DNA of 64,000 nt from a virus: positions 45,119-109,118 of IMG/VR virus record IMGVR_UViG_3300020048_000054; one strand, given 5' to 3'. Numbering within the stretch: the stretch's first letter is position 1; each line of letters opens with the position of its first letter. Positions 37,065 to 62,205 of the stretch are shown piece by piece. A program made the translations under genes and the position numbers. The notes under the pieces were generated by a model. It searched no databases. It had not been told where the DNA came from and saw only the letters and a program-made list of their open reading frames with translations.

Positions 37065-37247
37065 TTATACACAATTTGAATCTGGTGTCAACACTTTTGT
37101 CCAAGAAAGCGAAGATTCTTCTGCTTTCATATGATCGCGAAAAGCGAAACGCTTAACGACTTCATTATCCAAATAATACAAGACAACGTAGATAACATCT
37201 TTCTCGTTTTCATCAATATACATTGGGCATATGCTAGCAGTCTTCAT
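37065..37247 (-). CDS. Hypothetical protein
   Basis: 60 aa, AAGGAG RBS. Confidence 0.55.
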   Translation of the reverse strand: MKTASICPMYIDENEKDVIYVVLYYLDNEVVKRFAFRDHMKAEESSLSWTKVLTPDSNCV

Positions 37248-37269
37248 AGTTTAACTCCTTTAAATACAG

Positions 37270-37343
37270 TGACTCCAAGGAGATTTGAACTCCTGTTATG
37301 GCATTGAAAGTGCCGTGTCCTAACCAGGCTAGACGATGGAGCC
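37270..37343 (-). tRNA. tRNA-Glu(TTC)
   Basis: GGCTCCA/TGGAGTC, GTCTAGCCTGGTTAGGAC, anticodon loop ctTTCaa. Confidence 0.9.
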
Positions 37344-37356
37344 TAACACTTGCAAA

Positions 37357-37429
37357 TGCCTCCACTAGGGATCGAACCTAGGACCATTCCGTTAAAAGCG
37401 GAATGCTCTACCAGCTGAGCTATAGAGGC
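37357..37429 (-). tRNA. tRNA-Lys(TTT)
   Basis: GCCTCTA/TGGAGGC, AGCTCAGCTGGTAGAGC, ttccg-ctTTTaa-cggaa. Confidence 0.93.
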
Positions 37430-44360: not shown

Positions 44361-45082
44361 TTTTTTTTCCGAGTTTTCTTCTTTGGCAACACTAACATTG
44401 CGCGTTTCACTGGAGATCCCCAATTCTCTTGGTCTATCCAGATCTTAGACGTAGGAACACCCACTGCAGGAACTCGCTTAGCACCAGAGCTAGTCTTGAA
44501 TTGCACGTTTGCGTCTCTGTCTCGAATGAGTCGTTCCCAGACATGAGCGCCACCGGGGCTTTGTTGTATGCCACTTTCGACTGCGTGTTTCTTTGAGATG
44601 TGTTTGTATATCTCAGCAGGAAGCGAGATTCCATTATCGCTATATCTGTGCCCCAATGCAGCATGAGTCATGGTGGGTTTATAGGTTCCACGCTTAGCAA
44701 CTTCGTTGTTCATGCCTTTACCGACTCTTCCGTAAGTTATTGCTGCGATCTTACCGCTCGTATTATGAACTGCCACATAGTGATGTGTGTCATTTAACTC
44801 GCGGTCTAATCGTTGTTCGTGTCCGGGATACTCACCTTCGTAGTCAGCGAGATTCGCGTCTTCACTCTTTCTATAATTGCCATGTCCTATGGAACTATAG
44901 ACAGTATAACGATCTCCGATTTTACCGAGCTTCTCTACGTTTCGACCATTTGCTATTGCATGCTTCTGCCAAGCTTTATGCGGGATACCAAGCACAGATC
45001 GAGGTTCACTTACACTTTCAGGATGCCCAACATCGTCTATTACTTCAATATCTTCGAGGATGTACTGTATAAAGCTTTTCAC
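44357..45082 (-). CDS. Family-A GNAT-like protein with leader MKSFIQYILE (GTG start)
   Basis: Paralog of 43611 (IG..YTVYSS, HH...VHN, LPAEIYKHIS, SG.QQSPGG..VW..LI.D); ATAAATA upstream. Confidence 0.6.
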   Translation of the reverse strand: MKSFIQYILEDIEVIDDVGHPESVSEPRSVLGIPHKAWQKHAIANGRNVEKLGKIGDRYTVYSSIGHGNYRKSEDANLADYEGEYPGHEQRLDRELNDTHHYVAVHNTSGKIAAITYGRVGKGMNNEVAKRGTYKPTMTHAALGHRYSDNGISLPAEIYKHISKKHAVESGIQQSPGGAHVWERLIRDRDANVQFKTSSGAKRVPAVGVPTSKIWIDQENWGSPVKRAMLVLPKKKTRKKK

Positions 45083-45205
45083 TATAAGAGTATTTATCTC
45101 AAAGAATTCTTATGGGGGAGTCTCATGGGTAGGAGTCCCTTGTTCAATTTAATCCCATCGAATTCGATGGGATTGGAGTCCCTTAAAGCTTTTCACTGTA
45201 ATGGA

Positions 45206-45610
45206 TCACATATCATTGGCATCCATTTGGACACCTTGACCAGATGGGACTCCGACTCCACGAACAGGAGTTTTGAGTGGTTTGTTTGGTGTGTTATATC
45301 CGCCAGTCTGTACTTTTCCATTAGACATTGGTTGATTACTCCACACTTCGCCACCTGCAGTTTTTTGACGAAGATTGTTAGGATTGCTCTGCATGTTCTT
45401 TACTGCTGCCTCTTGTCTCTGTTCTATTCTATCGAACTCTGCATCCTGCGGATCATATGCTGGTTTATTACCACCCATATTCGACATAGCTAGTCCTATG
45501 CCAGCTGTTGCTGCTAGACCAGCTGCTGCGTAACCTACCTTTTTCATGAATCCAGCTTCGTCTAAGCGTTGTTCTAGGATCTGACGATATTCTTCTTGAG
45601 TTCTAGCCAT
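45206..45610 (-). CDS. Small protein with leader ending LDE followed by a hydrophobic helix
   Basis: MARTQEEYRQILEQRLDE-AGFMKKVGYAAAGLAATAGIGLAM; perfect late promoter upstream. Confidence 0.7.
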   Translation of the reverse strand: MARTQEEYRQILEQRLDEAGFMKKVGYAAAGLAATAGIGLAMSNMGGNKPAYDPQDAEFDRIEQRQEAAVKNMQSNPNNLRQKTAGGEVWSNQPMSNGKVQTGGYNTPNKPLKTPVRGVGVPSGQGVQMDANDM

Positions 45611-45617
45611 AGTATAT

Positions 45618-45625
45618 TATTTATA
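45618..45625 (-). promoter_or_regulatory. T4-type late promoter TATAAATA
   Basis: Exact consensus 7 nt upstream of ATG 45610; gp33 is present in the window. Confidence 0.8.
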
Positions 45626-45927
45626 CGGGACTCCAACTAGGAGTCCCTTTCGATTTAATCCCGTCGAATTCCACGGGGTAGGAGTCCCATGCTAGGAGTC
45701 CCTTAAAGGATTTTTGGGGTGGGAGTCCCTGTAGGAGTCCCGGAGGGGGATTCCGGGTAGGGAGTCCCTTAAAGGAGTTTTGCGTCTTAAAGGCTTTTGG
45801 GGTAGGAGTCCCAGAGGAGGATTCCGGCTAGGGGAGGTAACTAAGAATTCTTTGAGGGGAGCAAGCTAGCACGAGGCTCCATCGGGAGTCCCATGACACC
45901 CCTGTACTGTTCGGACAGGTGTATTGC

Positions 45928-46710
45928 TCACTTGCGAAATGATGAATCTCCAAAGTCGATGCAGACAAGTCGCCCGCAATAGATTCCCACATTGCCACCA
46001 TGCATGTCAGCGTAGTACGGGCGACGACGACTCTCACGAAATGTACGAGCATTCGCGGGGTCAGTCTTGCGTCCGTCAACCTGATCGTCATCAGTCGCAG
46101 GAAGATCACGCAATGCATTCACAAGTGGCAGACATGCATTCAACTTGTCAGCGAACTCAGACGCATGCGCTCCAAAGGGATCATCGCCAGCCAATGCTTC
46201 AACAAGATCATCCCATGATTCGATCTTCTGTTCATCGCTGTTCTTGAACCACACGCGACTGAGAATGCTCACTGTCTGCATCTCTACGATGTGTGATGGA
46301 AACCCTTGACGTACTCGTGCTCTCTTCTGTGCGTATGTGTAGTCGCCCACGGGATCGTGACACACATCTGCGACTGCTGTCTCGTATCCGTACTGTGGGT
46401 ATGCACCGAGGTGCTGCGTTGCTGGGCACGTCCATACTACGAAACGTCCCACTGGCGGTGCGTACCCATGCTGCGCTGCTGCACGTTGGCGCACATACGC
46501 TACGACTGCATCCCATAGACTCGCAAAGAGTTTGATGGCAAATGAATCGTCGCGATTGGGTTCTGCACCATTCATATAGAATGCTGCTTCTGCGCCCATG
46601 CTCTTGCACTCAGTCAATGGTGCAATGTAGTGCGCGATCTCTCGCACATCGTACTTGATGCTCCATGCGCTTGTGGGGGTCTCAATATGATCAGGTAGAA
46701 TTCGTGTCAT
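45928..46710 (-). CDS. Minimal protein kinase-like (PKL fold) protein 1
   Basis: FAIKLF, YADMHGGNVG and VCIDFG motifs; start re-set to MTRILPD. Confidence 0.75.
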   Translation of the reverse strand: MTRILPDHIETPTSAWSIKYDVREIAHYIAPLTECKSMGAEAAFYMNGAEPNRDDSFAIKLFASLWDAVVAYVRQRAAAQHGYAPPVGRFVVWTCPATQHLGAYPQYGYETAVADVCHDPVGDYTYAQKRARVRQGFPSHIVEMQTVSILSRVWFKNSDEQKIESWDDLVEALAGDDPFGAHASEFADKLNACLPLVNALRDLPATDDDQVDGRKTDPANARTFRESRRRPYYADMHGGNVGIYCGRLVCIDFGDSSFRK

Positions 46711-46900
46711 GCTCTCATTGTACTCTATGCTTCTATGTAACACTAGTGCGATAAACAAGGTAGAAATCGTATGGTTTTCGAATAACATGTCGTTTCCTAG
46801 CTGGAAAACGCATAGTGCAAAGTTGATAGTGAATTATATTATCGGAACCACAGCACCACGGTATTATTGAACCCTTGTGGTTTCAGCTTGTTTAGCTCAG

Positions 46901-46929
46901 TTGACGCTGTGTGCCGCTTGTGGTATGAT
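46901..46929 (+). promoter_or_regulatory. Sigma70-type early promoter (near-leaderless)
   Basis: TTGACG-17-TATGAT with extended TG; ATG 9 nt downstream. Confidence 0.8.
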
Positions 46930-46938
46930 GGGACGCAT

Positions 46939-47562
46939 ATGACTACCACTTTCACTCCTCAATTCTCACCTCTTCGCACCTTCACGCATCACCTGATGGG
47001 AAAGGTTGATGTGTATGTAATGCGCCGCAACACGCGTGTTTCAGCTTCGGGTATTCAGGCTGAGTTTCTCATGAACAATGCAGAACCAAATCGGCGCAAT
47101 CACTACGCGCTCAAGCTCTACATCACCGCCAGTGAAGCATTCGCGGCGTATCAGCGCCAGAAGATCGCCGCTGCAGCGGGTGCTGCTCCGCCAGTGCGGC
47201 GTATGGTGATGGTGATGCGAAACGGTCCATGTCAATGCGGAAACATCAACGAATGCACTGGCACTTGTTGGTGTCGTGGTCGCATCATGTGGGGATATCA
47301 AACATGCGTGGCTGCGCGTATTGGTGTCACATGGGGTGTGACTCGCGAAGGTGATACTAGCGATACAGGTATTCGCAAGCTGTACACCACCATGCGTAAT
47401 CTCAACACCATTGGTACGCAGCGTGATGACAAACCATTAGGTGTAATGCACGGTCGCAAGTATCTCATGGTGTGCGATCTGCATGGTGGAAACATTGGAT
47501 TCTGGCGCAAGTCGCCAGTCGTGATTGATTTCGGTTCGGACATCATCAACATCGGTTTATAA
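46939..47562 (+). CDS. Minimal protein kinase-like protein 2 with Cys-rich insertion
   Basis: YALKLY, CDLHGGNIG and VVIDFG motifs; CQCG..ECTGTCWC insert; paralog of kinase 1. Confidence 0.75.
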   Translation: MTTTFTPQFSPLRTFTHHLMGKVDVYVMRRNTRVSASGIQAEFLMNNAEPNRRNHYALKLYITASEAFAAYQRQKIAAAAGAAPPVRRMVMVMRNGPCQCGNINECTGTCWCRGRIMWGYQTCVAARIGVTWGVTREGDTSDTGIRKLYTTMRNLNTIGTQRDDKPLGVMHGRKYLMVCDLHGGNIGFWRKSPVVIDFGSDIINIGL

Positions 47563-47571
47563 GGAGACACT

Positions 47572-47751
47572 ATGAAGACTCACACAATTATCATTCTGCC
47601 TGACGGCGAAACTTGGAATACAATCGGCGACTGCACCATCATGGTCATAGACGATAAACAATTCAAAGAACTTTGCGAGGATCAAGTCAGGGCATGCGAG
47701 ATGAAACCTGTTGCAGCACTTTCGTTCAATGATTTGGAAATTGGTTCATAA
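47572..47751 (+). CDS. Small hypothetical protein (59 aa)
   Basis: AAGGAG RBS; hand translation MKTHTIIILPDGETWNT...LEIGS*. Confidence 0.6.
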   Translation: MKTHTIIILPDGETWNTIGDCTIMVIDDKQFKELCEDQVRACEMKPVAALSFNDLEIGS

Positions 47752-47759
47752 GGAGCAAT

Positions 47760-47906
47760 ATGGAAATGCAATACTGTGATGATTGTGGGTGCGAACTTGC
47801 AACACGCGAAGAGCGTGTTGTCGTGCCAAGTCTCTCTCGCGACATTGAAAGCGCAAACAAGGGAGAATCTGCTGTTCTCTGTCTCATCTGCTACATGGGG
47901 GTTTAA
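47760..47906 (+). CDS. Small CxxC...CxxC zinc-finger-like protein (48 aa)
   Basis: AAGGAG RBS; MEMQYCDDCGCEL...LCLICYMGV*. Confidence 0.5.
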   Translation: MEMQYCDDCGCELATREERVVVPSLSRDIESANKGESAVLCLICYMGV

Positions 47907-48022
47907 GCTATGGTTCATACCATTTTACTTGTCGGAGTCATCTCTACGCTAGTGCTCGTGCAACTAGTCATCGTGTTTGTTGTTTATGCAATTTGGTCTT
48001 CAATTTCAAAGGATCGCCACTC

Positions 48023-48334
48023 ATGAGTGTACTTACCCGAATGACTCGCCGCTTGTCGTTTCGTTTGCCATCTGCGCCAGGTTGGTGCTTGGAATACAAC
48101 CTCAACGATTTTCACTTCACGCTGACGTACTTCGGCACAGTGAAAGAACACTGGCAGTACAGTTTGCCAGGACGCATTCAACCAGCTCTCGTGACACTCG
48201 AAGCGATTGCTGAAGACCGTTTGCAACTCGAAGCCGATGCCATCAAGCGTCACCAAGAGATGAGCGTGTATGTCGATACGCATGATGAGCGTCATGATGA
48301 GCCTGATTTCACTGATCTGTTTCCAACCCTCTAA
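48023..48334 (+). CDS. Hypothetical protein
   Basis: AAGGA RBS; start MSVLTRM. Confidence 0.55.
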   Translation: MSVLTRMTRRLSFRLPSAPGWCLEYNLNDFHFTLTYFGTVKEHWQYSLPGRIQPALVTLEAIAEDRLQLEADAIKRHQEMSVYVDTHDERHDEPDFTDLFPTL

Positions 48335-48346
48335 GGAGCCACTATA

Positions 48347-48718
48347 ATGCTGAACAATCTCTTGAACAAACTGCGCGCACTTGTTACAATTAAGTCTCAC
48401 AAGTGGGAATCGATTTCCACTGCAACACCTTCTCTTGAGGAACTGACTGATATGAGTACTAATGACATGATCGTGAACAGCTTTCGTTCTTTGCTTCGTT
48501 ATACTGCAACTGAAATTGCACACATTGATAACGAGAATGAACAACGCCACCTGTTCGCAAATGCACGCAATGTGCGTGTTCTCGCTCGTGAAGCTGGCTG
48601 CCTCAAGGCACTTGATCGTGCAATCGCAGCCGATGATGTAACGGTTGAAGTCTTTGTTGATTCAGACTTCAGCTGGTCGAAGTACAACAGCAACATCGCT
48701 GCGTGGGTGTCTGCCTAA
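48347..48718 (+). CDS. Hypothetical protein
   Basis: 123 aa, AAGGAG RBS. Confidence 0.65.
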   Translation: MLNNLLNKLRALVTIKSHKWESISTATPSLEELTDMSTNDMIVNSFRSLLRYTATEIAHIDNENEQRHLFANARNVRVLAREAGCLKALDRAIAADDVTVEVFVDSDFSWSKYNSNIAAWVSA

Positions 48719-48787
48719 ATTCTCCCCGTGTGGTGGGTGTGGTGGGCGACGAAGTTTGTCCCGCCACACCCTCATGAGGACCAAACC

Positions 48788-49033
48788 ATGAGTATGGATC
48801 ATAAGGACTTTATGCTTTCGCAGGAGAATACACTAATGTCAGACGAAGAGTATTACTATACTGCAGTTAATCTCGACCGCGATGTTCCCGAATGGGAGCC
48901 TGATCTCGATGAAGAAGCGGAAGATGATGATGACGAGCAAGAAGACTTGGAAGAGGATCGCCACATTGACGGTGGTAGCCAGTGTGGTAGAGCTTCGGAG
49001 GATTGGTCAGGTTACTACAGTGATCTAGACTGA
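48788..49033 (+). CDS. Small highly acidic protein
   Basis: GAGG RBS; DLDEEAEDDDDEQEDLEED tract. Confidence 0.6.
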   Translation: MSMDHKDFMLSQENTLMSDEEYYYTAVNLDRDVPEWEPDLDEEAEDDDDEQEDLEEDRHIDGGSQCGRASEDWSGYYSDLD

Positions 49034-49055
49034 CTGCCTGATTCATACACTCTCG

Positions 49056-49093
49056 ACCCTAGCACAGCGAAAGCTGTTCTAGGGTTTTTCTTT
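49056..49093 (+). terminator. Intrinsic terminator
   Basis: accctag..cagc-gaaa-gctg..ctagggt hairpin plus T-run. Confidence 0.75.
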
Positions 49094-49225
49094 ACCCATT
49101 GTTGATAGTGATACGGTTTGTTATCGGACTGTACGCCGCATGTACATGTCCGAATAACATGTCGATTTGTTATCGGACGTAAGTCTTTATATTATCGGAC
49201 TTTAGAAATGTCTCAATTATAGGGC

Positions 49226-49254
49226 TTGCGCCCTGCTACCCTTTGTGGTATGAT
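49226..49254 (+). promoter_or_regulatory. Sigma70-type early promoter (near-leaderless)
   Basis: TTGCGC-17-TATGAT; ATG 8 nt downstream. Confidence 0.75.
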
Positions 49255-49262
49255 TCGACCAT

Positions 49263-50699
49263 ATGGCTACCGCCCTTCAATCGTCTAAACAACTCGCCTT
49301 TATCGCCGCGCTTCGCAGCGTGGCAGGAGACACTAATAGCATCGTCTCGCGTAGCAAGCTTGTCGAAGCTGCCGCGATCTGCAACATCGCATGTCCGCCA
49401 GCGTGGATCGTCAAGGATCCTTCTCGTGCAGCTGGTCGTGGATTCTTTCGCGTTCCTGAATTGCTGAACGCTGCAGCATCTGCTGCTGCAGTTGCTACCA
49501 TGGCGCCTGTTGCAGATACTGCAGCATCCACTGTGATGGCTGTGATTGGTGCGACCAACACCATCAAGACTGTCAGCCACAGTAAGATTCTTGGTATGAC
49601 TGGCGGAGATCGCACTACGCTGATCCCTGACAAGATCGATACCTACGTTCCGTGGGGACACTTCAGTTCAATCGAAGCGATCATTCGCTCCGGTTTGTTC
49701 TCTCCGATGTTCATCACTGGTCTTTCCGGTAATGGTAAGACTACGATGATTGAGCAAGTCTGTGCGAAACTCAAGCGCGAGTGCTATCGCGTCAACATCA
49801 CCGCAGAGACTGATGAGAGCGATCTTCTCGGTTCATTCGGACTCGTTGACGGTAACACCGTCTGGCAGGATGGTCCGGTTACGCTTGCACTCAAGAGCGG
49901 AGCTGTTTTGCTCTTGGATGAAATCGACTTGGGATCTGACAAGATCATGTGCCTTCAGTCTGTTCTCGAAGGTAAGGGCGTGATGCTCAAGAAGATCGGT
50001 CAGTTCGTGCATCCTGCTGCGGGTTTCACCTGCGCCGCGACTGCGAACACCAAGGGTAAGGGCGATGACAATGGTCGATTCGCCGGTACTCGCATTCTCA
50101 ATGAAGCGTTCTTGGATCGCTTCGACTTCACCTACGAGCAGGAGTATGCACCGAAAGCGACTGAGAAGAAGATTCTTCTCAAGAAGATGGCGAAGTTCGG
50201 TAAGGTTGATGATGTGTTCGCAGAGAACCTCGTGCGTTGGGCGGAGATCATTCGCGCATCGTATGATGACAATGCGATTGATGAGATCATCACGACTCGC
50301 CGCTTGGAGGGTATCTGCAAGGCGTATTCGATCTTCAATGATCGCATGGAAGCGGTGAAGATGTGCGTTTCTCGCTTTGATACGCTCACTCGCACGGGTA
50401 TGGTGGATGCGTATAGCAAGATTGATGCGGATGTGAATCCGGTTGCTGAAGCTGCTCCAGTCGCAGACAATGCAAAGTACTGCATGTTGGATCGCTACAC
50501 GAGCGCAGAGATCACGAATGGTAATCCAATCTTCCTGCCGTTTACGCGCTACGAAGACAAGGATACTGTTCGCAATGCAGGTGCGCGTTGGGATGCGACC
50601 AACAAGATGTGGGCAATCACTCATCAGCAGTATATGGCTACTTCAAACGCCATCGCGGCATCTAATCATGGCTACTTCAAACGCCATCGCGGCATCTAA
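49263..50699 (+). CDS. MoxR/CobS-like AAA+ ATPase with C-terminal DUF5710-like domain
   Basis: Walker A GLSGNGKT, Walker B LLLDEID, ATANTKG, LNEAFLDRF, TRRL; YEDKDTVRNAGARWD...W. Confidence 0.88.
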   Translation: MATALQSSKQLAFIAALRSVAGDTNSIVSRSKLVEAAAICNIACPPAWIVKDPSRAAGRGFFRVPELLNAAASAAAVATMAPVADTAASTVMAVIGATNTIKTVSHSKILGMTGGDRTTLIPDKIDTYVPWGHFSSIEAIIRSGLFSPMFITGLSGNGKTTMIEQVCAKLKRECYRVNITAETDESDLLGSFGLVDGNTVWQDGPVTLALKSGAVLLLDEIDLGSDKIMCLQSVLEGKGVMLKKIGQFVHPAAGFTCAATANTKGKGDDNGRFAGTRILNEAFLDRFDFTYEQEYAPKATEKKILLKKMAKFGKVDDVFAENLVRWAEIIRASYDDNAIDEIITTRRLEGICKAYSIFNDRMEAVKMCVSRFDTLTRTGMVDAYSKIDADVNPVAEAAPVADNAKYCMLDRYTSAEITNGNPIFLPFTRYEDKDTVRNAGARWDATNKMWAITHQQYMATSNAIAASNHGYFKRHRGI

Positions 50700-50701
50700 T
50701 C
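50634..50701 (+). repeat. Exact 34-bp tandem duplication causing a frameshift at the ATPase C-terminus
   Basis: atggctacttcaaacgccatcgcggcatctaatc x2. Confidence 0.92.
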
Positions 50702-50904
50702 AGGAGAACATTTGGGATAAGTTTGGCGCTTGTCCTACGGAACTCCAATCAATCAACGGAGTAGCCACTCTGATGATGATTGCGGCTAAGCCACGGGCGA
50801 CACACGCCTAATCTGCCGTTGTTGACGCAACGACAATCCCCAAGACTAGCAATCTTCGGGATTGTTGTTGATAGTGATGTAAGAACCTGCTACAATGGAG
50901 CCAT

Positions 50905-51171
50905 ATGAAACAGAGTACTACACTAATCGGAGACACGATTGCAACCATTCGCGAGTGCGCGAAGCTTGATCCGTACTTTGAAGAGACGGACGCACTGCAG
51001 GATACTGCAGCAGCACTTGGTTACCTCGCAGTCTATCCTGATTCTGCGTTCTCGTATGAGGAGCTGTATGAGCTGCAATCAATCGCAAGTCGCGTGAGAT
51101 CAGCCATGCACAACGCCACTACAGATTTCCGTGACGATCACGGAGATGACGATTACACCAACACCATCTGA
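50905..51171 (+). CDS. Hypothetical acidic protein
   Basis: 88 aa; TTGATA-17-TACAAT promoter 8 nt upstream. Confidence 0.6.
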   Translation: MKQSTTLIGDTIATIRECAKLDPYFEETDALQDTAAALGYLAVYPDSAFSYEELYELQSIASRVRSAMHNATTDFRDDHGDDDYTNTI

Positions 51172-51182
51172 AAGAAACCGAT

Positions 51183-51509
51183 ATGAATACTACATCAACC
51201 GCCACCGCTCAAGTCACTCAGTCAAGTTCGTATAACGCTCTCAAGACGTATCAGCAGGAGTTCATTCGCATGATCTCTCTTTGGTGTACTCACAATGGAT
51301 ACCCCGCCAATGTTGGTGTTCCTTGTCCGACTGCATTCTCTCGTGATGTTCTCCGTACCATTGCGAATGGAAACGGCATGCGATGGGCGCCAGCCTGGAT
51401 CGTCAAGGATGTGACGCGCAAGGCCGCACGAGGATACTACAGCGTTCCGGAAGTGGCAGACTACATGGCGACCATGACGGCGCCCGCAACCGATGCGACC
51501 GAGGTTTGA
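51183..51509 (+). CDS. Stand-alone paralog of the ATPase N-terminal domain
   Basis: SR..L...A......PAWIVKD..R.A.RG...VPE shared with the first ~70 aa of 49263. Confidence 0.7.
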   Translation: MNTTSTATAQVTQSSSYNALKTYQQEFIRMISLWCTHNGYPANVGVPCPTAFSRDVLRTIANGNGMRWAPAWIVKDVTRKAARGYYSVPEVADYMATMTAPATDATEV

Positions 51510-51610
51510 TGCTTTGGGGGAGGGGGCATAACCCCTCCCCCATTGTTGATAGTGATAAGGTTATCGGACTTTGTTATCGGACTGGCTATTATCAGCTACT
51601 TTCACAGGGC

Positions 51611-51639
51611 TTGACACAGACCCCCGTCTAGGGTATGAT
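51611..51639 (+). promoter_or_regulatory. Sigma70-type early promoter (near-leaderless)
   Basis: TTGACA-17-TATGAT; ATG 51648 is 8 nt downstream. Confidence 0.85.
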
Positions 51640-51647
51640 TGACGCAT

Positions 51648-54137
51648 ATGGCTACCGCTCTACCTACCGTTTCGATCACCTCGCACAATCATGCAGCTGC
51701 AAGCGTCATGGCTCGCATTCTGTCATCGGAGAACATTAATGTCATCATCGATGCTGCCGCGTCTACTGCAGCGTTCGACCTCAAGAACCGTACGCTGATT
51801 CTTCCGCAATGGAAGGACATGAGCAAGACTGTTTACGATATGCTCATCGGGCACGAGATCTCTCACGCTCTGCATACGCCATGCGAGGGTTGGAAGCTTG
51901 CAATCAATGCAATGAGCGGCACAACCGATAGCAGCAATGATGTATGGCAGACTGCTTCGCTCTACTTGAATGTTGTTGAAGATGCGCGTATTGAGCGTCT
52001 CATCAAGAACAAGTTTCCCGGATTCAAGCGCGACTTCGTTGCAGGATACGGCGAACTTGCTGCCAAGGATTTCTTTGGTATCAAGAAGATCGATATGAAC
52101 AAACTCGAACTGGCTGACAAACTCAATCTGTACTACAAGCTTGGTACGATTGGTTCTGTTGGTATTCGCTTCACTGCAGAGGAGCAGACTTTCATCACTC
52201 GCATTGATGCATCGCAGACGTTCGAAGATGCGGCACAGATCGCTCAGGATCTGTTCACTCACTGCAAGAACAAGAAGGCAGAAGACAAGAAGCAGAACGA
52301 GCAGGGCAATCCATTGAAGGACTGCAATGGGGGAAAGTCCAAGGATAAGGAAGAAACGCAGCAGGAGCAATCCTCGACCGCCCCACAGGGTGCTGAGAAG
52401 AAGGACGAAGACAAGGGCGACAAGTCCGACAAGTCCGAATCCAAGGAGAGCGATTCCACCGAAGGTGGCGATGAGTCATCCGCAGGTGAGGGTGACGAGC
52501 AGGGCGAGAAGAGCGAAGAGAGTGCCGATCAGGAGAAGCAGGACAAACCATCCAAGGATGGCGCACGTTCGGATTCCAATGGTTCTGCCGATCAAGCACC
52601 TACGCCGATCACTCAGCAGAAGCTTGAGGAGTCGCTCAAGAAGAGCGTGAAGAAGCACCGTGGATACGGCGAGACGATCAATGCGCCAGCGAAGTTGATT
52701 CACTGCGATCTCGCCAAGGTTGTGTTCGATTACAAGAAGTGCATGGAGTACATGAAGAAGGATTGCCCATCGTTCTTTACTGATACTGCTGTTCGCGAAG
52801 GGTATGATGCTGTACAGGATGCGTTCGATATCAAGTGCAAGCACACTGTCGATCAGCTGTCCAAGCAGTTCGAACTTCGCAAAGCAGCGATGGTTTCCAA
52901 GCGCGCTTCGATTCGCAACACGGGTGTTCTCGATACCGTTCGTATGGTGAACTACAAGTGGTCGGAAGACATCTTTCGCCGCAACACGATTCTGCCAGAG
53001 GGTAAGAATCACGGATTGGTGATGTTCGTTGACTGGTCGGGTTCCATGAGTGCTTGCGTTGAATCAGTCTTGGAGCAGACGATGGTGCTTTGCGACTTCT
53101 GCCGCCGTTCGGGTATTCCGTTCGAAGTCTATGCGTTCACCACTCGTGACTTTAGCAGCGGTGACGATTGCCATTCAAATCGTCCATCGAATAGCAGTGT
53201 GTGGAAAGATGGAATGTACGATGGGTACGCTACCGCTGCAGAGAAGGATGCAGCTATTCGTGCGAATGGTTTCACTCTGCCAGCAGCAGCGAATCAGTTC
53301 TCGTTGTTCAACATGTTCTCGTCACGCATGACGAAGCAAGAGTATCGCACCTGCAAGTATTGGTATCGTGCGCTCACGACCAACAAAGCGATTGGTAAGT
53401 GCCGTTTGTACCCTCAACTTCGTTGGGAACTGTCCGGTACTGCTCTTGACGAAACCATCGTTGCTGCGATGCAGATCGTTCCGCAGTTCAAGGAGCAGCA
53501 CAAGTTGGATATCGTGAACACGATCTTCCTCACTGATGGTGATTCAAGCGTTGCGTACATGAACGGTTCGCAGACTCTCATTGATCCGAAGACTCGTGCA
53601 GTCTATAGCAATGCGGAACTTCGCAAGAACATGGGTGCTGCGATCACCGAAGATACGCAGCTGAACACCACGAATGTTCTGCTGAGTGCGTTTCGTGATA
53701 TGACTGGCAGCCGTGCCATTGGTATGTTCTTGTGCAATGGTGTTGCTCAAGCGAATCTGTTCTTCGCCAAGCAGTACGCTGCTGCGGTGAGTCGTTCGGA
53801 GCGTGAGCAACTTGCAGCAGCAGGAAATGCTGCTCAGTCGTATCGTCAGGGTTACATTCACGACAATGCGCTCAGGGTTGCAAACGATGTGGTTCGCCGT
53901 GACATGAACGCGCAACTGAAGCAGGACAATGTTGTCTGCGCCGATGCGGGTTGCACGGGTTACGATGAGTTCTTCTTCATTCAATCCGTAACGGATATCG
54001 ATGGTGACAATGCGATGGAGTCCGTCACGAGCAAGTCATCGCAGACAACGATGAAGAGAGCGTTCAGCAAGTCGTGTGCTTCTCGCAACAAGGGGCGGGT
54101 GTTGGTGAATCGCTTCATCGAGCTGATCGCTCGGTAA
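51648..54137 (+). CDS. CobT-like metallopeptidase + vWA protein (partner of the MoxR ATPase)
   Basis: TAAFDLKNRTLILP, GHEISHALHT, NVVEDARIE, acidic linker, MIDAS DWSGSM...GT.L...LTDG. Confidence 0.85.
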   Translation: MATALPTVSITSHNHAAASVMARILSSENINVIIDAAASTAAFDLKNRTLILPQWKDMSKTVYDMLIGHEISHALHTPCEGWKLAINAMSGTTDSSNDVWQTASLYLNVVEDARIERLIKNKFPGFKRDFVAGYGELAAKDFFGIKKIDMNKLELADKLNLYYKLGTIGSVGIRFTAEEQTFITRIDASQTFEDAAQIAQDLFTHCKNKKAEDKKQNEQGNPLKDCNGGKSKDKEETQQEQSSTAPQGAEKKDEDKGDKSDKSESKESDSTEGGDESSAGEGDEQGEKSEESADQEKQDKPSKDGARSDSNGSADQAPTPITQQKLEESLKKSVKKHRGYGETINAPAKLIHCDLAKVVFDYKKCMEYMKKDCPSFFTDTAVREGYDAVQDAFDIKCKHTVDQLSKQFELRKAAMVSKRASIRNTGVLDTVRMVNYKWSEDIFRRNTILPEGKNHGLVMFVDWSGSMSACVESVLEQTMVLCDFCRRSGIPFEVYAFTTRDFSSGDDCHSNRPSNSSVWKDGMYDGYATAAEKDAAIRANGFTLPAAANQFSLFNMFSSRMTKQEYRTCKYWYRALTTNKAIGKCRLYPQLRWELSGTALDETIVAAMQIVPQFKEQHKLDIVNTIFLTDGDSSVAYMNGSQTLIDPKTRAVYSNAELRKNMGAAITEDTQLNTTNVLLSAFRDMTGSRAIGMFLCNGVAQANLFFAKQYAAAVSRSEREQLAAAGNAAQSYRQGYIHDNALRVANDVVRRDMNAQLKQDNVVCADAGCTGYDEFFFIQSVTDIDGDNAMESVTSKSSQTTMKRAFSKSCASRNKGRVLVNRFIELIAR

Positions 54138-55464: not shown

Positions 55465-56877
55465 ATGAAAGCAATTCTACTAGTTCTATCGTGTCTGTTC
55501 CTGATCAGTGGTGTGAGTGTCAATAAGACACAATCCAACATTGATACCTTCTTTGTACAGTGGAAGAATGGTGTAAATAAAGATGCTGTTCTTTCTACCA
55601 TAGCAGATGTTGAAAGCATAGAGCACTACTCACACATTCCGAATCTTACTCTCATAAACATGAACAATGTGGCTTCTATGCGGAATGCTATGTCTTTCTT
55701 GTCTATGAATCCTAATGTGGCATTTGTAGAAGCAGATGTAATGTTTACTGCTACAAGAAACGAAGTCATTCCCAATGACTCTGGCTTTTCTTTATGTTGG
55801 GGACATCGAAACACTGGCGCATCCGGTGGACTCATCAACTTTGACATGAATACTACGAATGCATGGGATATCACAAAAGGCTCATCTGCTATTCGTGTTC
55901 TTGTCTTTGAAACAGGCATTCAGCCGAACCATCCTGATATCAATCAACTAGCTGGTCGTGACTTCAGCACAGGCGTAGTAAACGGTGTAGTAGGTGGTGG
56001 TCCAAGTAACTCATGCGACAATCATGGTACAGCAGTAGCGGGTTGCATTAGTGGCATCATCAACAACAGTCTAGGTACTGTGGGTGTTGCTCCTGAATGT
56101 AAAGTTGTTTCTGCAAAGGTTGGAACCTCTGTGGTTCCCTGCAATGGATCATGGCAAGGACAAACATCGTGGACTGTGAATGCAATCAACTGGAGCATTG
56201 CAAACGGTGTCCGTGTGACAAACAACAGTAATGACTATGGTACAGATTCAGCTGCTATGACTACTGCTTATGTTGCTGCAAGAAATGCAGGTGTAGTAAA
56301 CTTTGCCAGTTCTGGAAACTCTGGAAACACAACAATCGGATTTCCAGCACGATCAGCTGGCGTAGTAGCAGTGGGAGCATCAAGCCGAACCGGGCAGAAA
56401 GCCACTTTCTCTTCCTATGGTTCTAAGCTCGCATTCGTTGCAGCAGGACAGTCAGTTTATACAACAGACAGAACGGGTGTAGATGGTTATGTTTCGGGAG
56501 ACTACACCACGATTGATGGTACATCGTTCTCTTCTCCATATGCAGCTGGCGTTGCTGCATTGATACTCTCTGCAAACCCATCCCTTTCGGCTGCACAGGT
56601 AGAATCGATCATGCAGACTACATGCAGAGACATTGGTGCTGTTGGATACGATACGCTCACCGGATGGGGAATGCTGAATGCAGATGCAGCAGTTCGTGTT
56701 GCTCAACCAACACCATGCCCTGCTGATCTCAACAACGACAGAGCAGTGAACGGAACGGATCTTGGTCTACTGTTAGGAGTTTGGGGAACACCACAAGGTG
56801 ATATCAATGGCGATGGAATTGCCAATGGATCAGATTTGGGTATTCTTCTTGGTACATGGGGTGTGTGCCCACAATGA
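55465..56877 (+). CDS. Secreted S8 subtilisin-like serine peptidase with GC-type dockerin C-terminus
   Basis: Signal peptide, prodomain, HGTAVAG, NNS, SSGN, GTSFSSPYAAGVAAL; tail PCPADLNNDRAVNGTDLGLLLGVWG..DINGDG...DLGILLGTWG.C. Confidence 0.88.
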   Translation: MKAILLVLSCLFLISGVSVNKTQSNIDTFFVQWKNGVNKDAVLSTIADVESIEHYSHIPNLTLINMNNVASMRNAMSFLSMNPNVAFVEADVMFTATRNEVIPNDSGFSLCWGHRNTGASGGLINFDMNTTNAWDITKGSSAIRVLVFETGIQPNHPDINQLAGRDFSTGVVNGVVGGGPSNSCDNHGTAVAGCISGIINNSLGTVGVAPECKVVSAKVGTSVVPCNGSWQGQTSWTVNAINWSIANGVRVTNNSNDYGTDSAAMTTAYVAARNAGVVNFASSGNSGNTTIGFPARSAGVVAVGASSRTGQKATFSSYGSKLAFVAAGQSVYTTDRTGVDGYVSGDYTTIDGTSFSSPYAAGVAALILSANPSLSAAQVESIMQTTCRDIGAVGYDTLTGWGMLNADAAVRVAQPTPCPADLNNDRAVNGTDLGLLLGVWGTPQGDINGDGIANGSDLGILLGTWGVCPQ

Positions 56878-56925: not shown

Positions 56926-57705
56926 TCAGAAAGTTCTAGATGCTCTCTCTGCTGCTGCTGCTTTCATTGCAGCTGTTCTGGCGCGGGCTTGTTGCTCTCC
57001 CTTACTTCCATCTCTAACCTTAGCTGCAGCTCTAGCCATAGTGTCTGGCTTTACATCAGGATTTTTAAATTCTACAGGAGTTTTGTCGGTGACGATTGAA
57101 GAATCTTGATTGTAACCACCACTAGGATGTCTTTGTGATGCAACGACTTTACCTTGCATGTTTTCTGCAGCGCCATGCACACCCGATGACCCGAGCATTC
57201 CTGCGAGTCGATAGCCAACATTTGTTGCTGGCTGAATATCACCACCTACTGGTTTTAGCCCCGAACGAAAACCGGTGACATGACTGGGACCACTATTATG
57301 TTGTCTAACCATAGCAGCCAAACGTGCCATGTTACGAGGACTATTTACTTCCATTAACTCTTCTACAGACATATTCATAGACTCAGCAATGGAAGCAATG
57401 ACATTCTCTAAGTCAGAGATGTATTCGGCTTGTTCAGCCATAGGAAAGGTTTTCTCTTGCTGTGCCAGTCTTCTGTTTTGAGCACCTTCTCCTGCAGGAG
57501 TGATACCTTCACCTTCTTTGTGTGGTCCTCGTACACCAAGATCAATCTTTGACTTTCTTTGTAGTCTTGCTAGTTCTACATCATTACGTCTTGCTGCAGC
57601 TGGCTGCATACCCTCACTCAATTGAGCAATAAGAGCTTTAGCTTTGGCTAGCTCTACTTGAAGATTGTTTCGTTCGTTAATAAGATTTCGTTGTACAAAG
57701 TCCAT
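56926..57705 (-). CDS. MDFVQ-leader cassette polyprotein 1
   Basis: Start re-set to MDFVQRNLINERNNLQVELAKAKALIAQLSE; internal conserved spacer AEYISDLENVIASIAESMN; AGGAGA RBS. Confidence 0.75.
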   Translation of the reverse strand: MDFVQRNLINERNNLQVELAKAKALIAQLSEGMQPAAARRNDVELARLQRKSKIDLGVRGPHKEGEGITPAGEGAQNRRLAQQEKTFPMAEQAEYISDLENVIASIAESMNMSVEELMEVNSPRNMARLAAMVRQHNSGPSHVTGFRSGLKPVGGDIQPATNVGYRLAGMLGSSGVHGAAENMQGKVVASQRHPSGGYNQDSSIVTDKTPVEFKNPDVKPDTMARAAAKVRDGSKGEQQARARTAAMKAAAAERASRTF

Positions 57706-57721
57706 GTGTATCTCCTGTTGT

Positions 57722-58357
57722 TTATGTATCAATATCCTTGATAGGAATGTTATGCTTGAGACGCCATGATCTCTCATAGTTAAGCATCTCTGCTGCTCTC
57801 TTGTGATCTTTGGATTTCTTCCCACGCTTAGTGAGAGAATCTGCTACTCTATCGTAATATTGTAGTTTAGTCTTTGGTGATGTAATGCGGGAACCTCTCT
57901 CAGCAATATCAGTGAGTATGCCAAAAGGTCCAGCTATGCTTTTAGCACTATCGTTTGTCATTCGAACACCAAGCCGTTTTCCAATCATCTTGTATGCACG
58001 ATCTCTTCTTGAAGAATCTGTGTCATAGCGAATGTGTGTGGTTGGCTCATCATGTGTGCTTATATGATGCTTTAAAGCGGCATGTACATGAGCAAAAGAT
58101 GCTAATGCCACATTGGTTGGTTTTACCTTTGTCTTTCTCGCTGAAACTTTATCATTAAAATCAAAGTTCACATACGCCGAAGGACTTCCCGGTTTTCTTG
58201 TGATCTGTACAACTCCACGCGGACCACCTGTTTGTTCACGAGATATATTGTATCGATGAAAATTGGTGTTGTGATTTTTATCTTTTTGAATGATAGGCTT
58301 CGACAGCACTACTGGAGTGTCAAATGTTTCTGTGATATACTGACTAAAGGTTTTCAT
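57722..58357 (-). CDS. Family-B protein with leader MKTFSQYITE
   Basis: V.F.F...F.HV....HH...I.Y.T....RDRAY....KRLG pattern shared with 42504 and 43075. Confidence 0.7.
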   Translation of the reverse strand: MKTFSQYITETFDTPVVLSKPIIQKDKNHNTNFHRYNISREQTGGPRGVVQITRKPGSPSAYVNFDFNDKVSARKTKVKPTNVALASFAHVHAALKHHISTHDEPTTHIRYDTDSSRRDRAYKMIGKRLGVRMTNDSAKSIAGPFGILTDIAERGSRITSPKTKLQYYDRVADSLTKRGKKSKDHKRAAEMLNYERSWRLKHNIPIKDIDT

Positions 58358-59094
58358 TTCATCTTTTTCTTCTTAGGACGATTACTGATTTCGCGTACTC
58401 TTTCTGCTTTCAAATCAGATTTTATGGCTTTATCTTTGAGATCTTTTGGATCCCGATCATCTGGAAAATAACGAAGAGTTGGATGCTCTTCAAAGGTTCT
58501 CTTATCGGCTGGTTTACCCATCATTTTAATCATTTGAATTCTACTTATTCTTGACATAGCACGATCAGACTTCTTCAATGAGCTTGCTCGAAAGTCTTCT
58601 CCGTCAGGTCCCATAGCATCCTTAGCATCACGCATTGCTGTACCCTCAATTTTATTCAACAAGTCTCTTCTTACAGGAGTAATTCTATAGGTTTCATACA
58701 AGTCAGCTGCAGACACATTCATCGATTCTGCGATTGTTGTAATGACATTCTCTAAATCAGAGATGTATTCGGCTTCTTCGCTCATAGGTTTGGTTATGCG
58801 ATCTACTGCTCTACCAATTCCTTCTTTTCTGTTTTTGAGTGTTTTAAGGACACGACTTGGATCACTTCCTGAATCTGCTATGTGCCCCGCATCGTTATCG
58901 AGGGTTGCAATATCGTTTCTTTCTGACCAACTCATACCACCGGGTTCAGTATTAACACCAGAAGCTTTCTTGATATACGAACCAAGTGTCTTATTGCTCA
59001 ACTCATTCAGCTGAGCAATAAGAATGTTAGCTTTCGCTAACTCAATTTGAAGGTTGTTTCGTTCGTTAATAAGATTTCGTTGTACAAAGTCCAT
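58354..59094 (-). CDS. MDFVQ-leader cassette polyprotein 2
   Basis: Same leader and spacer as 56926..57705 but unrelated payloads (ELSNKTLGSYIKKA...). Confidence 0.75.
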   Translation of the reverse strand: MDFVQRNLINERNNLQIELAKANILIAQLNELSNKTLGSYIKKASGVNTEPGGMSWSERNDIATLDNDAGHIADSGSDPSRVLKTLKNRKEGIGRAVDRITKPMSEEAEYISDLENVITTIAESMNVSAADLYETYRITPVRRDLLNKIEGTAMRDAKDAMGPDGEDFRASSLKKSDRAMSRISRIQMIKMMGKPADKRTFEEHPTLRYFPDDRDPKDLKDKAIKSDLKAERVREISNRPKKKKMK

Positions 59095-59119
59095 GTGTGT
59101 CTCCTAGTTTTATGTATTG

Positions 59120-59824
59120 TTAATCTTTATTGGGGTCATATACTAGACTCCACAGATCTGATCCTGATTTGTCGTCACCATATACTGTATTACCATGCTG
59201 ATCTGGATCATATCTGCGAATATGCTCGTGAGATTCTTTATTGTATGCCGAAGTACCACCCAATCTTGTTATACCATGCCACATACTATGCGCGCCCTTT
59301 GACTGTGTTTCTCCACTCATGATTGGAAGATTAGTATGAGCAGCTGCCATCATATAGACTCTTGCAGGAAGATCATTCACATGTGCTCGTTTTCCTTTAT
59401 GAGCATGCATGAATTGTGGTATTCCTTCCGGAGACATCATCTTCACAGCAGGATTATCTAATTTGCGTGGTTTATCATGTTCAAAAAACCTAACATGACC
59501 GACTACATCATCCTTGTGTTTCACAATAACACTATGAATATTTTTGGGATCATCCCAGTGACTCAATGAGCCATCACTTGCTTGTGCATGGTATACCTTG
59601 TATGGACCAATGTTTCCTATTTCTTTGTGTTGAGTCGAATATCTGTCTGCGCGAGTATAATCCAAAACTGGTGGATCATTAGGCTTAGTAGGAGGAATGA
59701 ATCCACGCTGAATTAATGTTGAAGTAAGCTCAGAATCATTATGTTTTTTATGCTGGCGTGTGCCTACATCGCCACGATCAAAATGCGGCATATCCTCCGA
59801 GATGTATCGTAGAAAGGATTTCAT
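59120..59824 (-). CDS. Family-A GNAT-like protein with leader MKSFLRYISE
   Basis: IGNIGPYKVY, LPARVY, IMSGETQSKGAHSMW. Confidence 0.6.
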   Translation of the reverse strand: MKSFLRYISEDMPHFDRGDVGTRQHKKHNDSELTSTLIQRGFIPPTKPNDPPVLDYTRADRYSTQHKEIGNIGPYKVYHAQASDGSLSHWDDPKNIHSVIVKHKDDVVGHVRFFEHDKPRKLDNPAVKMMSPEGIPQFMHAHKGKRAHVNDLPARVYMMAAAHTNLPIMSGETQSKGAHSMWHGITRLGGTSAYNKESHEHIRRYDPDQHGNTVYGDDKSGSDLWSLVYDPNKD

Positions 59825-62205
59825 TTTGCTAGTTTAGCGTTGAGTCGAGTAAGAAGACTTTCTCTATTTTTCTTTTGCTGAGTTGCTCTTGCAGCTAAAT
59901 CGTGTGTTGGTATCACACCCATATTAGACAACATAGATTTGTGTGCAGCAATCTGATCAATTGAATGTTTTGTGATATGTCTAGCCGCCATTCTATCATT
60001 TATATTATCCAGTACTTCATTGACTTCTCTTGGCTTACCAATTCTACCCAGACCAGCTTTCTCAAGTTCTTGTTCTATACGAATTTTATGCTCTGCTGCT
60101 TCTGCTTCCTTCTTGGTTGGAAGTTGTTTGCCTTTTAGTCGTGACATTATTGCAGCAGCGGCGGAACCGCGAACGATTTCTTCATCGAGTTCCATAGTTC
60201 CCGGAACTTTCATTTTCATAGTCTTGCCAAACCCGGTTCTCTCTAAGTTACTTGGATCAAATGTTCTTATAGAATCTGCTCCACCCGCTCCTGCTGGAAT
60301 GTAACCAATAGGAGAAACGGATCGCTTTCCTCTTGTCGCATGTGGCATGATCGAAACAAATCCAGAAGCCGATGGATTCATTGATGCTACTTCGATTGTC
60401 TTTTTACCCGACACAAGATATGTCTTGTTATCATGTGTAACTAAATGATGTCTGCTCAAATCACCTTCGTGTTCTGCACCAAACTCAGGAGTAGATTGCA
60501 TATGTACAGCAACGCCACGACCACTCGACAGATGTGTAGAAATTAGTGCGTGTACCTTGTTTGCCGAATGGCTTCTTGCAGCATGTGTGACATCGGCAGT
60601 AACAGAATCCAATTTAGGTTTACTTGCTCGTGCAATATCACCTGCGAACTCTCCAGCTGAGTTTGTTGCTGCTTTGTATGCATCAACTCTGGCTTCATTA
60701 ATGGCAGCTGTACCTTTTGGAACAGTTACAATACCACTTGAGTGTGGTTGAACTGCAAAGTCTCCAGCTTTCGCTAACATTTTCTTTCCACCTTTGATAC
60801 GAAGACCAGCAATCAGACCTTCGCCTGGTTGAGCATCATTGTACACATGATCCAAATGGCGATGATCGTGCAAATCTCCATCAATCACTCTATATCGTTT
60901 ACCTGTTTCTTCATCATGTACATGTGTTGGAAGCGGATCGCCTTCCTTACCACCACGACCTGCTTTCACAGCAAACACCATAGCGGAAACACCACCATTA
61001 TTCAAATGGTGCCGTACATGTTTCCAATTTTGTTCTTTTCCTTGAATACCAGTAGACGAAAGAGTAAGATGATAATTCGAAGGAAGTTGTTTCTTTGATC
61101 CATCCGGATGATATAATCTAGAAGCTATCTTGGTGTAGTCATAAAACTGCACATTTGGATGTTGTGTGAATACTTCTTTGTGAAGACTTTCGTGTGGAAT
61201 GTCCGAAACTATATTGAGCCGAACAGCAGCTTTCTTACCATTCTTAGCAGCAGATTTTTCGTGTGTGTCAATTTCGCTGTGCAACATTCCCATGAATTTA
61301 CTTGGGTGATCCAACATGAAATTAGTTTTGTTGAGTCTTGCTTTTTGAGTGAAGTTCATTGCGCCACGCCCAGCTTTATTCAAACATGCTGCTTTGCATT
61401 CTTGAGTTGCACACGCACAAGTGTTTACTCTGCCAGACTCCGTGGAAGGAGAAAGAGAAAGTCCTTTGGTTGCATAGGTGGGAACATTGATTCCCTCTTT
61501 GGCTAGTTTTGGATTGCTGCCTTCGGCACCAAGAAGTTTTGTCTTTCGCATGGCTCTTCCAGCCTTTGCATGAACCTTTTGTTCTGCAGGATTCACAACA
61601 GCATCGAACCCCTGCTTCACCGATCCCCAATTCTTCTTGTCAGGTGCAGCTGATGGCATTTGAGGAAGAGAAACATCCTCCATCAAGAAATTTAAATAAT
61701 CGTTGAATGTCAAAACCAAATCGTTTTCTATTATGTGTTGATTAAATGTTTTCATGGTGTGTTCTTCGTTTACAGATTTATTTCCCCAATTTGCAGCGCC
61801 AACCTTACGACACTTAACCAATGCTCCGGAAGCATAAGCAGAAGGCCAAACGCTATATCTCGACTTTACTTTACTGTAGCAAGCATCCTTTTTACCGCTA
61901 CCTTTTCCTTTTTTGTCAGATTCTTCATTCATAGTTTTTACATTCGTTGGTTTTGCAGCATTAGACTTTGATTGTTGATTAGGATCTGCCGCTTTCTTTC
62001 TTCGTGCAGCAGACTTTCTTTCTGCCTTTGTCATACTGGCTCTCTTTTGAGATGAAACACACTTAGGAACGCCTTCTCCCGGCTCGTCACTTGCACAGCT
62101 TCCACCAGTTACGACATTTACCCAACCAGGCTTTCCATCTTTTGATTTGGAATTGCCAAACCAATCACGAAGACCTTCTTTTAATTGTTTTTTAAAGTCT
62201 TTCAT
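59821..62205 (-). CDS. Multi-module polyprotein containing a GP88-like (radical-SAM-like Cys-cluster) domain
   Basis: Leader MKDFKKQLKE; modules GLRDWFG...KCV and KKDACYSKVKSRYSVWPSAYASGALVKCR; internal MKTFNQHIIE; then C..AT.EC...CL..AGRG, VRLN..SDI, QFYDYTK, NYHLTLS, IDGD.HD.R.LD. Confidence 0.7.
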   Translation of the reverse strand: MKDFKKQLKEGLRDWFGNSKSKDGKPGWVNVVTGGSCASDEPGEGVPKCVSSQKRASMTKAERKSAARRKKAADPNQQSKSNAAKPTNVKTMNEESDKKGKGSGKKDACYSKVKSRYSVWPSAYASGALVKCRKVGAANWGNKSVNEEHTMKTFNQHIIENDLVLTFNDYLNFLMEDVSLPQMPSAAPDKKNWGSVKQGFDAVVNPAEQKVHAKAGRAMRKTKLLGAEGSNPKLAKEGINVPTYATKGLSLSPSTESGRVNTCACATQECKAACLNKAGRGAMNFTQKARLNKTNFMLDHPSKFMGMLHSEIDTHEKSAAKNGKKAAVRLNIVSDIPHESLHKEVFTQHPNVQFYDYTKIASRLYHPDGSKKQLPSNYHLTLSSTGIQGKEQNWKHVRHHLNNGGVSAMVFAVKAGRGGKEGDPLPTHVHDEETGKRYRVIDGDLHDHRHLDHVYNDAQPGEGLIAGLRIKGGKKMLAKAGDFAVQPHSSGIVTVPKGTAAINEARVDAYKAATNSAGEFAGDIARASKPKLDSVTADVTHAARSHSANKVHALISTHLSSGRGVAVHMQSTPEFGAEHEGDLSRHHLVTHDNKTYLVSGKKTIEVASMNPSASGFVSIMPHATRGKRSVSPIGYIPAGAGGADSIRTFDPSNLERTGFGKTMKMKVPGTMELDEEIVRGSAAAAIMSRLKGKQLPTKKEAEAAEHKIRIEQELEKAGLGRIGKPREVNEVLDNINDRMAARHITKHSIDQIAAHKSMLSNMGVIPTHDLAARATQQKKNRESLLTRLNAKLAK

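Follow-up and report, generated by a model that had tools for sequence, protein, structure and literature searches.

Two modular genes of an uncultured T4-like phage share leader and spacer blocks ending in L-x-E, between which unrelated payloads are exchanged

What kind of protein do two neighbouring phage genes encode when their products agree in two short blocks and are unrelated elsewhere? This question is raised by genes A and B, which lie on the minus strand of a 64,000-nucleotide (nt) stretch of viral DNA (hereafter the window), the right-hand 64 kb of the 109-kb IMG/VR virus record IMGVR_UViG_3300020048_000054 (positions 45,119 to 109,118; estimated completeness 60%). We found each product to consist of a leader, a first payload, an acidic spacer and a second payload, with leader and spacer both ending in L-x-E, and we found the payloads to be exchanged between these constant blocks across a family of related proteins. 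Our preferred reading, to which we give a probability of about 0.6, is that both genes specify modular precursors from which capsid-internal (ejected) proteins would arise; propeptides would be cut off by a gp21-type protease, and payload cassettes are exchanged. Lengths below are in amino acids (aa), pI is the isoelectric point, ORF an open reading frame and HMM a hidden Markov model; payload families are numbered F0 upwards.

56926..57705, minus strand: gene A, 259 aa, pI 9.6; leader, payload F11, spacer, payload F2 (ORF list, segment clustering).
57613..57705, minus strand: gene A leader, aa 1-31, ending L-S-E (DNA repeat D1; leader HMM, E 8e-23).
57436..57612, minus strand: gene A payload 1, aa 32-90, family F11, basic, pI 10.4 (clustering, charge).
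57349..57435, minus strand: gene A acidic spacer, aa 91-119, net charge -8, preceded by Glu, ending L-M-E (DNA repeat D2; spacer HMM, E 1e-20).
56926..57348, minus strand: gene A payload 2, aa 120-259, family F2, basic, pI 10.7 (clustering, charge).
58354..59094, minus strand: gene B, 246 aa; leader, payload F4, spacer, payload F0 (ORF list, clustering).
59002..59094, minus strand: gene B leader, aa 1-31, ending L-N-E (DNA repeat D1; leader HMM).
58780..59001, minus strand: gene B payload 1, aa 32-105, family F4, a KTLGSY-type module, phrog_5709 (homolog comparison, PHROGs).
58693..58779, minus strand: gene B acidic spacer, aa 106-134, net charge -8, ending L-Y-E (DNA repeat D2; charge; spacer HMM).
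58354..58692, minus strand: gene B payload 2, aa 135-246, family F0, TYRITP start, basic, pI 10.1 (clustering).

The sharing of leader and spacer between A and B is real and far beyond chance, because both BLASTP and the DNA repeats cover only these two blocks and the remainder is unrelated. When the products were aligned, only residues 1-31 and the spacer region (~30 residues) matched (E 4e-26). At the DNA level the leader forms one direct repeat (D1, 57613-57716 and 59002-59105; 104 nt, 88% identity) and the spacer another (D2, 57356-57451 and 58700-58795; 96 nt, 78% identity); a MAFFT alignment found the two genes unrelated outside these blocks, while the upstream DNA common to both takes in the ribosome-binding site. 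An HMM search of the contig gave no third copy of either block. These results, together with the HMM matches, are in line with an earlier sequence-only reading of this stretch, which had described a shared 31-aa leader and an internal spacer (28-29 aa by our count), both conserved as DNA, both ending in L-x-E and alternating with unrelated segments.

How far does this architecture extend? Searching a word index with gene B, we obtained 86 proteins of comparable length together with 20 that are longer, and an exhaustive profile search of 1.84 billion representatives yielded just 64 clusters, which marks the leader/spacer family as narrow; it is also wholly metagenomic. IMG/VR, scanned with the leader, with the spacer and with a leader from a sister lineage, yielded no relatives, nor did a scan of GTDB genomes. 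A metagenome DNA scan confirmed two loci only, L003 and L004, from different Joint Genome Institute (JGI) samples, and the genomic context of the family was read from the window and these two short loci. The relatives were obtained from freshwater samples (JGI Ga0105097 and Ga0214919). Counting A and B, 89 proteins carry the leader. Its end is invariant in all of them, with L at -2, E at 0 and S, N or Q between, and column entropy rises from 0 to ~3 bits at the position directly after this L-x-E. The 82 spacers, each 28-29 aa long, likewise end in L-x-E without exception (LNE, LME, LYE, LDE, LIE, LLE, LVE or LRE), and a Glu directly precedes 79 of them. As a sequence motif, the hydrophobic-x-Glu propeptide end of the gp21-site type is present in all 89 leaders and all 82 spacers.

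The segments between these blocks behave quite differently from the blocks themselves. Clustering them across the 89 proteins gave ~25 payload families, arranged in 52 different architectures. The first slot is occupied by 15 families and the second by 10, which together form 44 combinations, and 65 quartets fail the four-gamete test between slot 1 and slot 2. The window payloads take part in this, F11 of gene A being paired with F2, F0, F1 and F6 across the family, and F4 of gene B with F0, F1, F10 and F2. Family F0, the second payload of gene B, takes either position: 11 proteins have it next to the leader and 13 behind the spacer. Three proteins (P0060, P0089 and P0091) hold three payloads, with two spacers or a half spacer, and in two more (P0080 and P0081) the leader is joined in register to the spacer. 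Recurrent architectures appear in separate 90%-identity clusters from different sources, leader-F4-spacer-F0 and leader-F3-spacer-F6 six times each.

A single breakpoint can be followed in the DNA of L003. This locus is 96% identical to 1.8 kb of the window (60791-59003), comprising the 3' part of a 794-aa gene, the whole of a 234-aa gene and the gene B leader; the similarity stops at the last leader base (59003) and returns only in the spacer (84%), and the L003 payloads differ from those of gene B. The combinatorial pairings, the four-gamete quartets and this break establish that payloads are exchanged between constant blocks. Such swapping had been proposed from the window alone, and the homologs we collected bear it out: they do not align over their full length, and their breakpoints fall at the L-x-E ends of the constant blocks. 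The same proposal spoke of small mature peptides, which overstates the case, as payloads measure 59-140 aa in the window and up to ~240 aa in clustered relatives.

Are the blocks conserved as DNA beyond what their protein sequence demands? We compared the four available DNA copies (gene A, gene B, L003 and L004). Leader codons 1-13 are nearly free of synonymous change, with one such change among the four, and the spacer core is about as uniform; in leader codons 14-31, each pair of copies differs at four to eight codons by synonymous changes only. Identical runs between block copies span 27-39 nt. The DNA-level conservation of the blocks is therefore real, as the sequence-only reading had held, and it fits a role of leader and spacer as recombination anchors, four copies being too few to tell this from recent conversion.

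L004 offers a separate observation. At L004:150-200, between the homolog of the 3' end of the 234-aa gene and another MKSF-leader gene, shared intergenic sequence is retained and is followed by a 5-codon ORF and then ATGGATTTTTAA (M-D-F-stop), which looks like the remnant of a deleted MDFVQ-type gene, the type to which A and B belong.

The modules also differ in charge. Leaders are nearly neutral, spacers are acidic (net charge -8, pI 4.05), and the payload segments (n=159) are strongly basic, 96% having a pI above 8, with a median pI of 10.1 and a median net charge of +7. A structure model of leader plus F0 in the homolog P0012 (predicted local distance difference test score, pLDDT, 71) predicts with confidence that the leader is a helix ending at the putative cut site (helix 3-32; pLDDT 85-89 over residues 1-20); F0 is helical in this model as well, and the model found no Foldseek match at E <= 0.001 in BFVD or PDB. 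The AlphaFold model of gene B is all helical and, at pLDDT 45, unreliable. No Pfam family matched A or B at E <= 0.01, and Pfam searches over 71 relatives gave sporadic weak matches only (best E 3.6e-4). PHROGs returned only phrog_5709 (function not assigned), for the first payload module of gene B, and the ESM Atlas gave no usable match.

That module links gene B to proteins outside the leader family. The KTLGSY...AVDRLTK unit (~70-85 aa, phrog_5709) occurs in tandem in long proteins of diverse T4-like phages (P0086, P0093-P0106), many of which carry MKxF-type targeting leaders. Since every copy starts right after an acidic E-E-x-E-x-L/I-D-E stretch, the same L/I-x-E junction as in gene B, these repeat proteins look like protease-punctuated chains. 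In a similar manner, F0 is found in four upstream contexts, following L-Y-E (spacer), L-Q-E (leader), L-R-E and M-N-E. In sister lineages, the spacer module stands directly after several other short N-terminal leaders, bounded by L/I-x-E, and precedes payloads such as F5 that are common to the leader family. By this comparison the spacer is the older element, a pro-region module, and payload 1 has been inserted between it and the leader. The description of this block as a spacer thus holds where it separates two payloads; elsewhere it is part of an N-terminal pro-region after a short leader.

Does the phage possess a protease that could act on such joints? Judged by its genes, the contig is an uncultured T4-like myovirus. 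It encodes gp23 (PF07068, E 1.6e-143), a gp21-type Peptidase_S77 prohead protease (contig 25374-26018, minus strand; PF03420, E 1.5e-31) and T4-type baseplate wedge genes, and its head module follows the T4 order: portal, two small core-like proteins, Peptidase_S77 prohead protease, scaffold and gp23. Because gp23 is ~58% identical to gp23 of cyanomyoviruses and of Pelagibacter phage HTVC008M, we assign the contig, by sequence, to an aquatic T4-like lineage of its own. In this gp23, L-V-E-A stands 32 residues ahead of the conserved VRR..PNLIA motif; T4 gp23 has L-T-E-A, the gp21 cut site in T4, 33 residues ahead of the motif. The head module lies at contig 22-27 kb, and genes A and B at 102-104 kb (window offset 45118).

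Further features of this genome were noted in passing. Outside the window, between the prohead protease and scaffold genes, contig 24502-25374 (L001:485-1357, minus strand) holds a 290-aa proline- and glycine-rich ORF at a position where T4 has no gene. In the window, ARAGORN calls a permuted transfer-messenger RNA (tag ending ...LAMAA) and seven transfer RNA genes at 30388-37429. The guanine-plus-cytosine content is 0.45-0.51 at 44000-54000, against 0.31-0.43 in the first 44 kb and 0.40-0.46 downstream, and this high stretch holds a cobS-like ATPase (49263-50699) and a cobT-like von Willebrand factor A (vWA) peptidase (51639-54137).

The immediate neighbours of A and B bear more directly on the question. 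Both genes belong to a minus-strand string, tightly packed with overlaps or 16-25 nt gaps, that is likely one operon from 62205 down to 56926. In addition to A and B it contains three genes:

59821..62205, minus strand: first gene of the string, 794 aa, targeting-like decapeptides at aa 1-10 and aa 151-160, GP88 domain (ORF list, Pfam).
59120..59824, minus strand: gene upstream of B, 234 aa, MKSFLRYISE start (96% DNA identity with the matching L003 stretch).
57722..58357, minus strand: gene upstream of A, 211 aa, MKTFSQYITE start, pI 10.2; its ATG overlaps the gene B stop codon (ORF list; T4-like decapeptide).

The T4 capsid targeting sequence is MKTYQEFIAE (PMC8442874), in which positions 4 and 7 matter in targeting and positions 8 and 10 in processing (PMC9026906). 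At least seven genes of our contig open with M-K-x-F-x-x-Y/H-I/L-x-E, including those directly before A and B, whose products begin with an MKxF...I-x-E decapeptide. Compared with the T4 sequence, the window decapeptides keep M-K-T, aromatic residues at positions 4 and 7, I or L at 8 and E at 10, and those of the two upstream genes match it at positions 1-3, 8 and 10. A T4-like N-terminal signal of ~10 aa is thus present in the 211-aa and 234-aa products and absent from A and B. The bodies of these two products are unrelated, and we rejected their paralogy, as the likeness is limited to the first 10 residues. Of the duplicated two-gene unit that the sequence-only reading had seen here, the MKxF-leader gene before each of A and B stands; with the two upstream bodies unrelated, the unit is a repeated arrangement and no sequence duplication.

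Several side observations concern these decapeptides and the surrounding genes. In the 794-aa ORF, the decapeptide at aa 1-10 ends in L-K-E and a second, MKTFNQHIIE (aa 151-160, start 61755), precedes the GP88 (PF17338) domain; the DNA of the first 145 aa is conserved in ~280 cyanomyovirus records, and the ORF may be a two-cargo chain with an internal leader copy. In Sinorhizobium phage phiM12, the 135-aa hypothetical protein SmphiM12_070 (L005:2501-2908) starts with MKSFKQLVE and shares its first 77 residues with the N-terminus of the long repeat protein P0106; its position between portal and gp21 protease ties an MKxF leader to a head-core gene position. Finally, convergent with gene A on the plus strand, 55465-56877 encodes a Peptidase_S8 subtilase with a weak dockerin-like C-terminus, an unusual cargo in a T4-like phage.

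How, then, might A and B work? On the reading we prefer, the 31-aa helical leader and the 28-29-aa acidic spacer would act as propeptides, recruiting the chain to the core of the prohead and perhaps balancing the charge of the basic payloads. All module boundaries would be hydrophobic-x-Glu sites suited to the gp21-type prohead protease encoded in this genome. Once cut, the chain would yield two basic payload proteins, or up to three in relatives, that stay with the DNA, and the small leader and spacer fragments would leave the head; the payloads would be injected with the DNA, possibly with a role against host defence. Homologous recombination inside leader and spacer would swap payload cassettes between genes and phages, a step suggested by the conservation of both blocks as DNA. 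The protease reading fits because the genome encodes a gp21-type protease, neighbouring products carry T4-like decapeptides, the payloads are basic and the spacer is acidic. Anionic pro-pieces of cationic antimicrobial peptides offset the charge of their cargo, and by analogy the acidic spacer may do so for its basic cargo before packaging.

Several points weigh against this reading. Leader and T4 targeting decapeptide are not related to each other, and the leader's targeting role is proposed by analogy only. The two genes lie ~77 kb from the head module, and a T4-type late promoter (TATAAATA) is absent near their locus. At the joint before the spacer, the residue three before the preceding Glu is often M, T or F and not L or I, and within payloads the depletion of L/I-x-E is slight (22 occurrences against 29.3 expected; shuffle fraction 0.09). 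All homologs are metagenomic, and a tblastn search of isolated phages with gene B and two sister-lineage proteins found no match.

The strongest alternative, which we nonetheless consider unlikely, is that the proteins are never cut. Leader and spacer would then be structural helices, serving for instance in oligomerisation or in the binding of a partner. The family would consist of basic DNA-binding proteins, helical or disordered for the most part, whose variable parts are swapped by recombination, and L-x-E would reflect helix packing. The confident leader helix, the all-helical if poorly predicted gene B model, the payloads without recognisable fold or domain and the lack of significance in the depletion of internal L/I-x-E are all consistent with this idea. 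Helix packing, however, leaves three observations unexplained: in 89 leaders and 82 spacers conservation stops at the Glu while the residue in the middle varies; the same modules stand behind L/I-x-E in four upstream contexts that are unrelated to one another; and module order is free, with F0 in either slot.

We regard as quite improbable a second idea, that the MDFVQ-type protein is a cognate adaptor, chaperone or neutraliser of the MKxF cargo encoded upstream, the two genes forming a functional pair. An MKxF gene is followed by an MDFVQ gene at all four loci (twice in the window, in L003 and in L004), with intergenic gaps of 16-25 nt. Upstream gene bodies are, however, unrelated while the downstream constant blocks are the same, and L003 contradicts the idea, as it keeps the 234-aa gene in a 96% DNA-identical stretch and changes the payloads downstream, so the payloads do not track their upstream partner. 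Most improbable of all is that the reassortment is only apparent and arose from chimeric assembly of metagenomes at the conserved blocks: most homologs do come from short contigs and the blocks do hold identical runs of 27-39 nt, but such runs are shorter than sequencing reads, A and B stand with different payloads on one 109-kb contig, a number of architectures turn up repeatedly, in 90%-identity clusters that are separate and come from different sources, and L003 and L004 come from different JGI samples.

If A and B are indeed precursors of capsid-internal proteins, what do they resemble? The closest known system is that of the T-even internal proteins, in which IPI, IPII, IPIII and >30 variants combine a targeting propeptide with unrelated basic bodies at hypervariable loci, whose conserved flanking elements have been linked to gene exchange (PMC3012670, PMC2839356, PMC12373910). 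The T4 internal proteins are highly basic and are cut once only (PMC8442874). They share with A and B a conserved N-terminal propeptide with a hydrophobic-x-Glu end, unrelated basic mature parts (~25 unrelated payload families among the A/B relatives), a hypervariable location and a gp21-type protease in the same genome. In contrast to them, A and B have a leader of 31 aa unrelated in sequence to the 10-aa T4 signal, an internal acidic second propeptide that would give two or three payloads per chain, and exchange inside the gene, at the joints.

Other systems share single aspects. In the giant phages (phiKZ, 201phi2-1 and SPN3US gp53/gp54), long N-terminal propeptides with several cut sites after Glu are removed by a gp21-related prohead protease, and ejection or inner-body paralogs have identical N-terminal residues and divergent bodies (PMC5694885, PMC9026906); their sites, however, are A/S/G-x-E, the phages themselves are not T4-like, and neither an internal spacer nor payload reassortment has been described for them. 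The phiKZ enzyme, gp175, has been assayed in purified form. Polyvalent proteins, known from phages and conjugative elements (Iyer et al. 2017, PMC5512222), likewise have several units per chain, are thought to be delivered with DNA and released by proteolysis, and show combinatorial architectures. They are, however, large and string together enzymatic or effector domains that can be recognised as such, often with a peptidase among them, whereas A and B consist of small basic modules with no domain match and no peptidase, and would be cut in trans by the head protease. The T4 prohead core proteins gp22, gp67 and gp68 are cut into several pieces by gp21, and gp68 is acidic in its N-terminal half and very basic in its C-terminal half; their genes are conserved and lie between portal and capsid genes, whereas A and B, which have no sequence similarity to them, lie in a variable region far from the head module. 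Our literature searches turned up no published account of the KTLGSY module, nor one of polyproteins of this kind in T4-like phages.

A bolder reading, which we advance tentatively and at somewhat less than even odds, is that aquatic phages of the T4 type have a plug-in system dedicated to capsid cargo. Through a propeptide in two parts, leader and acidic spacer, one signal would serve several basic cargos; the joints would be protease sites and, being conserved as DNA, recombination sites as well, and injected, possibly anti-defence, proteins would be reshuffled within genes, which likens the system to a polymorphic-toxin or integron system for phage ejection proteins. Proteins injected along with phage DNA have their model in the T4 internal proteins. 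Of these, Ip1-3 inhibit GmrSD restriction enzymes specifically, as was shown recently (PMC12373910). If our reading is true, the cargo repertoire of uncultured T4-like phages would be much larger, and would shuffle faster, than that of T-even phages; a second type of targeting propeptide would exist, and one signal would carry several cargos. The sharply defined joints provide a sequence rule for spotting capsid cargo in metagenomes, and could yield new tags for loading foreign proteins into phage heads.

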